The notes under the pieces: generated by a model
The model's database searches: none
What the model was told of the DNA's origin: nothing
The model's input: the letters and a program-made list of their open reading frames with translations, nothing else
Made by a program: the position numbers and the translations under genes
Assembly (NCBI RefSeq): GCF_003334355.1
Contig: NZ_QOWP01000058.1
Reading direction: 5' to 3' (one strand)
DNA: 9,806 nucleotides
From: Escherichia coli
GTDB lineage: Bacteria; Pseudomonadota; Gammaproteobacteria; Enterobacterales; Enterobacteriaceae
Shown: piece by piece, positions 1,057-4,000 of the stretch
Numbering within the stretch: the stretch's first letter is position 1
Layout: every line of letters starts with the position of its first letter

Positions 1057-4000
1057 TTCAAACAGGGCTTCAATATCGTTAATTAGCTCGCTGGCGGTGA
1101 TGGCATCGAGTACGGAGAACTGCGCTTCCTGTGTTGAATTACTCCCCCAGCCATAGCTTTCTGCTTTGCCTTCCCATAGCCACAGCTTGCTTAAGAGCTG
1201 CTCAGCGCTGAGTTCGGCTGGCGACATACCTACAGCAAAGCCTTCATCGATTTCCATGATTAACGACCAGCGACCGAGAGGTTTGATCATCCAGCCGATC
1301 CAGCCTCCATCCTGCGGGGTGCCCTTTATCCAGCCTTTATTCGCCAGCCCCATTACCCGACCGCTCGGGCATTTTCTGCCTGCCCAGCGGGTCAGTTCGC
1401 TGGCGTTGCGCTCGGCTTCTGTCAGGGCGTAACTGTTACGGTCAAGCTGACGGAACGGCGGTAACAGTTCGTAGTCGGCAAAAAGCTGACCAAAGGCGGC
1501 AGCATCCGTCGGTGATATTTCCAGAACGTGAGGAATACCAATAGAGATATCGCCTTCCGGCATGGTGAAAAGATCATCGTCAGCGGTGCTGTAACTGTTA
1601 TCTTCCGCCACGCGAAAGCACGCCAGCAGCTGGTTTTCGGCGCTATAAACACCCCAAATCAGACGGCGGGTTAAGTGGCGAACCAACGGATGCTCAACCA
1701 GGAACAGCTGAAAGTTTTCCGGTGACCAGCGGCGGCGCAGGCACATGGCGGATTCCAGCCTTGCTACCTGCTGGGCGGCGACGGTACGCGCATCTTTTTT
1801 CAGCAATTTGTAGCGGTTTACCGCCTCATCAGCCCGCGATTCATCATCGCTTTTATTGGGTTTAGGTAAGTCTTTCAGGCGGCTGCCGGAAACATCACGC
1901 ACAAACGGTTTTAAGGTTTCATCAAAGCTGACGGTGAACTGCCGTGGGCCAAAATCCAGCAGCAACGAACCGTTATCATCCAGACTGAGATCCGGTGCTA
2001 ACCGATCTTCAAGCTCCGCCACTGTCAGTTCGCGACTTTCGGCAATGTCGGCAATTTTTTCTTTCGCCCGCTCCTGTAATGCTTTGAATTTCAGTTTCTG
2101 GGCAATGCCGTTAAGCTGCATCAGGGCGATATCACTACCGATAGCAGCGAGAATATCCAACCCAACGGTGGCGCGTTTATGCTGGGATTCGCCAGGCCAG
2201 GCGCGGATTAATGGCGTCAGTTTGCGGGCGGTGTCATCGTTACCGAGAACGCCTAACGCAGTGAACGCCCAACTCTCTTTCGACGGCGCGCCAGCGGTCT
2301 GCCAGGCGGTAAACAGATCCCAGGCAAATCCCGCCAGTGAGTCGGCGGAACAGACGTCTTTCACCTGCAATAATCCCGGATACAGAGCCTCTTCCTGAGG
2401 GAAGCGGAGCATTTCACCGAGGTGGAGGAGGGCGCTATCTGGCAGTGATTGGGCATTTGCTTTTAATACCGGGCGCGTCCAGAGCGATGGCTGATAAAAG
2501 GCCGGAAGAGTGGGGATTTTTGTCGGGTGATTATCTAAGGGATCGAGCGCAAGCAGAGCGTTCACCGCATCGGTTACTTCCGGCTGGTTATAACGTCGGG
2601 CGATTTCTTGCAGTAATGGCTGATGACCGTTTTCGGTAAGCATACGCAAGGCAGCGCGGGCGTTATCCTGTGCTTCACCGGCTTTGCCGAGCGCCGCAGG
2701 CAGCAGGCCGGTAAGGGCATGTTCCGGGTATTTCAACAGCCAGCTACGGGCGTTTTCGCGTAGCGTTTTCAGTTTGTTGAAGGCACGGGCGACGGCAGGA
2801 GCCAGCTCACTCGCTGCGAAGTAATTCGTGATGGGCAAGGCTTCTTGTGGATAGCGTGCAAGTGAGTTTACTAACCCAGGTAACCCTTTGAGTCCAAAAT
2901 GTAACATGGCGTATTCGGTATCGGTATGTGGAGATAGGGTAAGGGCATTCCATGCTTTTACTGCTTTCTCCAGCGGCAATGTTGTCAAAATCCCCAACTG
3001 CCAATAATGCCCGGTAGGTGAATGAAACACCTTAAATTCACTTAGTAAGGTTGAATAATCTTCATTTAGCCATGCCTCAACTACCGCTTCGGGAGCTTTA
3101 ATATATGTACCAGCGATCCGTCGTTGAAAACCCATCCTTGCCAACAGGTTGGTAGTACTTTCTTCATGGCTAACCGTGATGTGTTTTGAATACCAGATAT
3201 ATTTCGCCAAAAGTTGATTACTGATTTCTTCTGTCAGATAACAGATTGGCTCAATGCCTAATGGCGCTAAATCCAGCACCGGAATCGGCGATTTTTTCTT
3301 TTTCGAAAGCCTGGGAGGGGAGACTACTACGGCTGGCAGTAGATCGGCGCTGGCATGGTTTGAGGGCTGTGTCAGTTGTTCCTGGCATGATTTCAGTACG
3401 GCAACTGCGGGTGTCGAGAGCCAGGGAATGACCTGTTCTGCCAGTGCTGGTTGTGAGATAAGCATTGTCATTAGCATAATGCGCCAACTGTTCTCTTCTT
3501 TTTGCCCAAGAAGTTCCGTCAGTGCCGCCATTGCTGCATGTGGGAACGCAGCAATGGCTTTCGTCATCCGATCGTGACAGCGTTTAGTTTGCCCGGCTAC
3601 ACGTATAAGCAGTGTCAATGCGAACGGATGATTGATATGACGCAACACATCGGCGCAGTAGTCACTTGCGGCATAGGGAGCAAATCGGGGCAGGGCTGCA
3701 ACACCTTGCTCCTGTAATACGGTGGCTGACCATATCGCACCACAATAGTAATCATCAAAAATGGCATATGGTTCGTGATATTTTTCTAATGAGGCAAGAA
3801 TGTGCTCATCAGTCGCCACTATTTTTAACCACTCAAGCGAGGGTAATTTTTTTTGCCCCAGTAGACGCTGGGCAATTTCATGTGCAATTTCTGGTTTTTC
3901 GGGTAATAACAAAGCAATTAATGGTTGCCGCCATTCTGGAATATGTGGAATTGCGGCAATAAGTTTTTGTGCACATTTTTGCCAGAGAGACTCTTCCGTC

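Follow-up and report, generated by a model that had tools for sequence, protein, structure and literature searches.

An eight-adenine run in Escherichia coli molR is a low-level frameshift hotspot and not the cause of the K-12 pseudogene

Why is molR intact in the Escherichia coli DNA analysed here and a pseudogene in K-12, and does a run of eight adenines in its coding sequence have a part in such losses or in any regulation of the gene? We addressed this in a window of 9,806 nucleotides, which is the whole stretch that was analysed (contig NZ_QOWP01000058.1 of assembly GCF_003334355.1), and in the complete genomes of the species. The preliminary description of the window had stated that molR is interrupted in K-12 MG1655 and intact here, and this is correct. 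The window carries an open reading frame of full length, the product of which is 100% identical to the 'DUF4132 domain-containing protein' of strain KL53 (WP_001569017.1). In MG1655, with the locus order metG-molR-yehI, the gene is annotated as the yehF CDS (b2115) and the yehH pseudogene (b4499), and molR (yehH) is listed as 'disrupted in K12' (PMC3950696). The same description had proposed that A-rich tracts within the gene, an A8 run and a second tract encoding SKKKKS, are candidate slippage hotspots and natural candidate sites for the K-12 disruption. Here we show that the first of these tracts does lose a base recurrently in the population, and that neither of them accounts for K-12.

According to Pfam, MolR has a WGR domain (residues 6-69) and a DUF4132 domain (residues 988-1173). 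The only match of NCBIfam to MolR is sub-threshold and lies over the WGR region, and PADLOC matched no defence model or family to the protein. The molR (yehH) promoter is activated by BglJ-RcsB (PMC3950696). The locus as a whole consists of one to four WGR/DUF4132 paralogs in tandem, varies in copy number, and is located upstream of yehLMPQ. It decays by nonsense mutations, frameshifts, and insertions or deletions that involve IS1, IS3, IS26, IS110, and ISVsa5/IS10. In the window, the end of an IS10/ISVsa5-type element interrupts the paralog yehI at base 77/78, a junction that is absent from all 5,426 complete E. coli genomes. The features to which we refer are collected in the table.

Table. 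Positions of molR, its neighbours, and the tracts and lesions compared, in window coordinates.
Feature	Position	Strand	Remarks
Intact molR ORF, 1264 aa	1054..4848	-	Corresponds to K-12 yehF + yehH; from ORF list, KL53 identity, and Pfam
A8 homopolymer (plus-strand T8) in molR	3847..3854	-	Codons 332-334, CAA AAA AAA; recurrent -1 (A7) site in the E. coli population
A5GA6 tract AAAAAGAAAAAA, KKKK within LSKKKKSP	3292..3303	-	Unchanged in K-12; no A6>A5 allele found
Codon 275, TTA (Leu) in the window, TGA in MG1655	4024..4026	-	First K-12 lesion; exact match in 706 complete genomes
GG dinucleotide (gene position 2846-2847), GGG in MG1655 (+1 frameshift, gene position 2846-2848)	2002..2003	-	Second K-12 lesion; exact in 352 genomes
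A8 run in downstream paralog yehI, codons 56-59, KKKN	869..876	-	Equal-length comparator
metG	4989..7031	-	Neighbour; molR sits between metG and the yehI paralog

Direct reading of both strands confirmed the run itself. The plus strand around it is GGTAATTTTTTTTGCCCC, with T8 exactly at 3847-3854, and the minus strand reads CAA AAA AAA TTA from position 3855 to 3844, in frame, so that codons 332-335 encode QKKL as had been described. The run is located in the unannotated stretch between the WGR and DUF4132 domains. The tract encoding SKKKKS exists as well, but it had been placed at 3289-3300, three bases off its actual position (3292-3303). Lysine is encoded in molR by AAA 60 times and by AAG 10 times (70 codons), and there are several KK or KKKK motifs in the protein. 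To see what chance alone produces, the protein sequence was kept fixed and the gene's own synonymous codons were permuted in 5,000 recodings. A homopolymer of at least 8 was present in 89% of these recodings, and an A8 at the exact site of the tract appeared in 29%. Because a run of this length arises in 89% of the recodings, the molR A8 is not above chance; it is what the coding of Gln-Lys-Lys yields.

The K-12 lesions were located by a base-by-base alignment with MG1655, the comparison that the preliminary description had itself recommended. Over 3.8 kb, molR of the window and of MG1655 differ by 65 substitutions and 1 indel, and two of these differences are disabling, the TGA at codon 275 (TGA275) and the additional G that turns GG into GGG at gene position 2846-2848. 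Neither lies at a long homopolymer, both are away from the two tracts, and K-12 has the same A8 and A5GA6 tracts as the window allele. The MG1655 pseudogene is thus the same gene at the same locus, but it was inactivated by TGA275 and a G insertion with its A8 run intact. The idea that the A-rich tracts were the sites of the K-12 disruption does not hold, and the molR A8 is not the cause of the K-12 pseudogene.

Tract length in the species was surveyed in 5,426 complete E. coli genomes with queries shorter than 100 nt and flanks of at least 28 nt, for which the band of at least 99% identity comprises exact matches only. Queries that force every megablast seed to cross the tract were considered and rejected, as the DUST filter masks A7 to A9. 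The 88-nt segment around the molR tract is present in 3,779 of the 5,426 genomes. It matches exactly with A8 in 2,964 genomes and, on the same flanks, with A7 in 13 (0.44% of carriers, the other 99.6% being A8); no exact match to an A9 allele was found among the 5,426. In 592 genomes the run is broken by a synonymous codon (CAA AAG AAA, the B2-type sequence). For alleles with different flanks (about 220 to 480 genomes) a sample was taken: each of 12 hits that were not identical to the A8 query covers exactly 88 nt and therefore carries no net indel. The preliminary description had named lesions at unrelated positions, together with an invariant tract length, as the outcome that would speak against a hotspot. 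For K-12 the lesions are indeed at unrelated positions, but the tract is not invariant, with 13 A7 against 2,964 A8 genomes. Its naming of the A8 as a candidate slippage hotspot is supported, as one base has been lost recurrently on several haplotype backgrounds. The same cannot be said of the A5GA6 tract as a site of disruption, since it is unchanged in K-12 and there were no exact matches to an A6>A5 allele among the 5,426 complete genomes. A7 is a minor route to the loss of molR: it was found in 13 genomes, compared to 706 with exact TGA275 and many truncations mediated by IS elements. The K-12 +G allele matched exactly in 352. The gene is dispensable and often pseudogenised; besides TGA275, the lesions seen in the population include a premature stop (codon 306) and alleles truncated by IS1, IS3, or IS26.

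Are these A7 alleles real? Homopolymers are easily under-called in long-read assemblies, and if all A7 calls were errors of this kind the tract would effectively be invariant in nature. The molR variants are deletions only (13 A7 and 0 A9), which is the typical direction of such errors. We retrieved all 13 A7 loci and compared 12 of them with KL53 at every position of the aligned flanks, which measure approximately 1.9 to 15.5 kb; for the 13th genome, FDAARGOS_1058, yehI alone was aligned. In the 12 genomes the A7 is a clean loss of one nucleotide, without a surplus of indels at other homopolymers of these flanks, where no further coding homopolymer is contracted except for the yehI A8 in two cases. 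Three lineages carry the same A7 on identical or near-identical flanks in isolates from unrelated laboratories and countries. WP4-S18-ESBL-08, from Japan, does not differ from EC6563, from China, over 17,087 bp. FDAARGOS_1058, from Germany, and N51, isolated from CSF, have common flanking protein alleles and the same 1-nt deletion in yehI, which is not at a homopolymer. KD602, from a dog in Korea, and CFIAFB20180540, from food in Canada, are separated by 2 differences in 11.5 kb. Because they were recovered by independent laboratories in different countries, the A7 alleles of these three lineages are real and inherited. The remaining A7 genomes are seven singletons, known at the level of their assemblies. 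We regard some of the singleton calls as possibly artefactual, but the phenomenon itself as real. Altogether, A7 alleles are found on at least six distinct haplotype backgrounds.

The A8 run of the paralog yehI served as a comparator, and it is contracted to A7 in 55 of the 4,822 genomes that have the segment. In two genomes, STEC1588 and CFIAFB20180540, the assemblies show A7 at both sites, while about 0.15 such genomes are expected (binomial P = 0.009), and this double contraction could reflect systematic under-calling of 8-mers. A re-sequenced MG1655 (NZ_CP025268.1) likewise has A7 in yehI despite A8 in the reference MG1655. However, KD602 has A7 in molR and A8 in yehI, whereas the near-identical CFIAFB20180540 has A7 in both; the molR A7 is therefore common to the two and the yehI change is separate. 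Generalised homopolymer under-calling was also considered for FDAARGOS_1058, in which both genes are frameshifted. It was rejected: the yehI lesion is the non-homopolymer deletion and falls within a mosaic patch. The A8 of yehI agrees with the reference, as do all A7, G6, and G7 runs checked in that gene. When homopolymers in essential genes were sought as an error control, no runs of at least 7 were present in metG and apbC, and no coding runs of at least 8 in a 50-kb region of MG1655 rich in essential genes (mur/fts/secA/ace). The lack of 8-runs in the mur/fts region illustrates avoidance where frameshifts are costly. Taking both sides together, we consider it very unlikely that all A7 calls are assembly artefacts.

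Very probably, the molR A8 is a by-product of the CAA AAA AAA coding in a dispensable gene, prone to slippage and without a dedicated function. As at any run of this length, strand slippage during DNA replication may remove one A and give A7. The frame would then shift after Lys333 and read QKNYPRLSG up to a stop at codon 341, leaving a 340-aa stub with the WGR domain alone and without DUF4132; a hypothetical A9 would read QKKITLA with a stop at codon 339. A7 alleles of this kind appear repeatedly, and some lineages retain them since they tolerate the loss of molR. We infer replication slippage as the mutational mechanism because the long run varies (13 A7), the shorter run in A5GA6 does not (0 A6>A5), and the paralog run of equal length varies similarly (55 genomes). 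As an uninterrupted run of 8 nt, the molR A8 also falls within the range at which slippage is expected (about 6 to 8 nt or more). Indel rates in E. coli grow exponentially with the length of a homopolymer (PMC8510543), and coding A/T runs are noted to be hypermutable and typically avoided from 9 nt upwards (Baranov et al., PMC1088944). The molR tract resembles the indel hotspots at mononucleotide runs known from mutation-accumulation studies in E. coli (PMC8510543), as it is an uninterrupted 8-nt A:T run that changes by 1 nt, with a frameshift and pseudogenisation as the result, and as it varies far more than the 6-nt run, in line with the exponential dependence on length. It differs in that only -1 events are seen and that these come from counts in a natural population rather than from rates, so the persistence of an allele reflects weak selection too and not the mutation rate alone.

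The A7 alleles are probably neutral or nearly so. A7 is the sole molR lesion in 8 of the 13 genomes and occurs together with another disabling lesion in the other 5: TGA275 and the +G in ME8067, TGA275 and an IS1 deletion in PSS-08-2, TGA275 in EC26, the stop at codon 306 in TW08637, and an IS3 truncation in UTME-3. There is no enrichment of A7 in molR genes that were already dead, as TGA275 is present in 3 of the 13 A7 genomes and in approximately 24% of the population (706/~2,977). An enrichment would have pointed to purifying selection on intact molR, but the two shares are equal.

Could the tract nevertheless be a contingency locus that switches MolR reversibly ON and OFF, possibly jointly with the yehI A8? 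This homopolymer lies in frame within the 5' third of a non-essential gene, and a change in its length turns the protein off, as in the phase-variable surface genes of Neisseria, Haemophilus, and Campylobacter. In addition, the tandem paralogs each have an A8 run with length variants, and their contractions co-occur above expectation. In a phase-variable tract both lengths would be common and would interconvert within lineages. Here the OFF form is rare, there is no +1 allele and no sign of reversibility, and A7 is clonally fixed over at least 11 to 17 kb of identical flanks rather than flickering. Eight A:T pairs are also few for phase variation in an enterobacterium that is proficient in mismatch repair. 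The tract is neither longer than expected by chance nor conserved, given the AAG codon in 592 genomes, and the tracts of the two paralogs are at non-homologous positions (codons 332-334 in molR and 56-59 in yehI). Phase variation of molR is therefore disfavoured, and we regard it as extremely unlikely. It is likewise very unlikely that the two A8 runs are coupled slippage switches of low frequency, acting at the DNA or RNA level, which tune or shut a module of MolR/YehI and YehLMPQ (MoxR ATPase, vWA, SWIM). If they were, the excess of double contractions (2/13 compared to 0.15 expected) would be a trace of co-selection and not of assembly error.

Another option is programmed recoding, in which slippage of RNA polymerase, or of the ribosome by -1/+1 frameshifting, on A AAA AAA would generate a defined fraction of truncated, WGR-only protein from the intact gene or would rescue A7 alleles. 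The heptamer starts with the final base of codon 332, continues through codons 333-334, and fits the X XXY YYZ register, as in dnaX (A AAA AAG), and a GGGG element is found 3 nt upstream. In E. coli, transcription does slip on A runs; in some bacteria 8 A are enough for productive slippage, and runs of A9 are used in IS elements (PMC1088944). Compared to these sites, molR lacks an extended alternative open reading frame, as both alternative frames stop within 5 to 8 codons, the +1 frame at codon 341 and the -1 frame at codon 339. The slippery motif is not conserved either (CAA AAG AAA in the 592 genomes), and the folding of the downstream region as a stimulatory RNA structure is not significant (z = -1.6; 20 of 200 shuffled sequences fold equally well). 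Moreover, at 8 nt the run is one nucleotide under the usual threshold of 9 nt for the avoidance and the use of such runs (PMC1088944). Programmed recoding is disfavoured as well, and we give it next to no probability.

The molR A8 is an ordinary, low-level slippage hotspot, contracted in about 0.4% of carriers, and not a regulated switch. In itself this matters little, as it adds one documented natural case of a coding mononucleotide run at which frameshifts recur in E. coli. It does correct the assumption, easily made, that molR of K-12 became a pseudogene at a homopolymer; the main point lesion that inactivates molR is TGA275, in 706 genomes, and not slippage. For annotation, A7 calls at the A8 runs of molR or yehI need to be checked at the level of reads before a frameshift is recorded. 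The wider locus, a copy-number-variable array of WGR-DUF4132 genes with many routes of decay, may be of more interest than the tract.

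The K-12-type TGA at molR codon 275, where the window reads TTA, was found by exact match in 706 complete genomes and is therefore not peculiar to K-12. The K-12 frameshift in molR, in which GG has become GGG (+G), was found in 352 genomes. Strain EC26 (locus L014) carries the TGA and lacks the +G, so the nonsense mutation is older than the frameshift. PSS-08-2 (L013) also carries this TGA.

The second lysine tract of molR, which the preliminary description had placed near 3289-3300, is indeed present, with its coordinates shifted by 3 nt (see the table). A lone AAG averts an A12 run there. 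The A8 run within molR codons for QKKL has its one-base-shorter (A7) allele in the K-12 laboratory strain ME8067 (L007). Among the flanking genes in 40 kb, the protein accessions of YegT, YegW, ThiD, MetG, and YehW are unique to ME8067, and it differs from MG1655 by 1 SNP per 15 kb. This suggests a mutagenised or mutator laboratory line, a history that may account for its molR A7 allele.

The downstream paralog yehI also contains an A8 run, and A7 alleles of this run occur in 55 of 4,822 genomes (1.1%). Many carriers belong to clonal series (OkiPb, SW0716, and SMN), and another is a re-sequenced MG1655 (NZ_CP025268.1), where A7 is possibly an assembly error or a laboratory variant. In the window itself, yehI is broken off after approximately codon 322 by an IS10/ISVsa5-type terminus. 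A search of 5,426 complete genomes gave no match to this junction. STK78-E has a separate, independent ISVsa5 insertion at another yehI site, and in KL53 yehI is intact and molR is 100% identical to that of the window.

Coordinates of features in molR and yehI
Feature	Location	Strand	Detail
IS4-family IS10/ISVsa5-type terminus	window 1-77, junction 77/78		minus strand reads CTGATGAATCCCCTAATGATTTTGGTAAAAATCATTAAG...
Truncated yehI ORF	window 40..1044	-	334 aa
Second A8 run, yehI codons 56-59	window 869-876	-	AAG AAA AAA AAC (KKKN)
KKKK tract, molR	window 3292-3303	-	AAA AAG AAA AAA
molR codon 275	window 4024-4026	-	TGA in K-12
9-bp duplication, molR	L009/L010 9723-9732		position ~2177 in the molR gene; homologous window position ~2670
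yehI mosaic patch/deletion	L008 yehI ~nt 1900-2300; L017 position 13467		

In WP4-S18-ESBL-08 and EC6563, an in-frame tandem duplication of 9 bp (GCCGGTGAA repeated) gives molR a frame of 1267 codons. In yehI of FDAARGOS_1058 (L008), about 400 bp form a mosaic patch that is highly divergent, the rest of the gene being near-identical; this pattern suggests gene conversion from a paralog. One nucleotide is deleted in the patch, at a position outside any repeat, and its loss causes a yehI frameshift in FDAARGOS_1058 and N51.

The molR locus (window 1054-4848 plus upstream; homologous loci L003, L005, and L012) is a tandem array of WGR/DUF4132 paralogs with a variable copy number: K-12-like strains have molR and yehI, B2 and O157-like strains have an additional DUF4132 paralog between metG and molR, and UTME-3 has four copies. 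Pseudogenes are frequent among the copies; they carry internal stop codons or frameshifts, or are cut short by IS1, IS3, IS26, or IS110. MolR matched none of the PADLOC models. The array adjoins yehLMPQ (MoxR AAA+ ATPase, DUF5682, vWA, and SWIM), and its turnover beside these genes resembles that of a fast-evolving accessory or conflict module.
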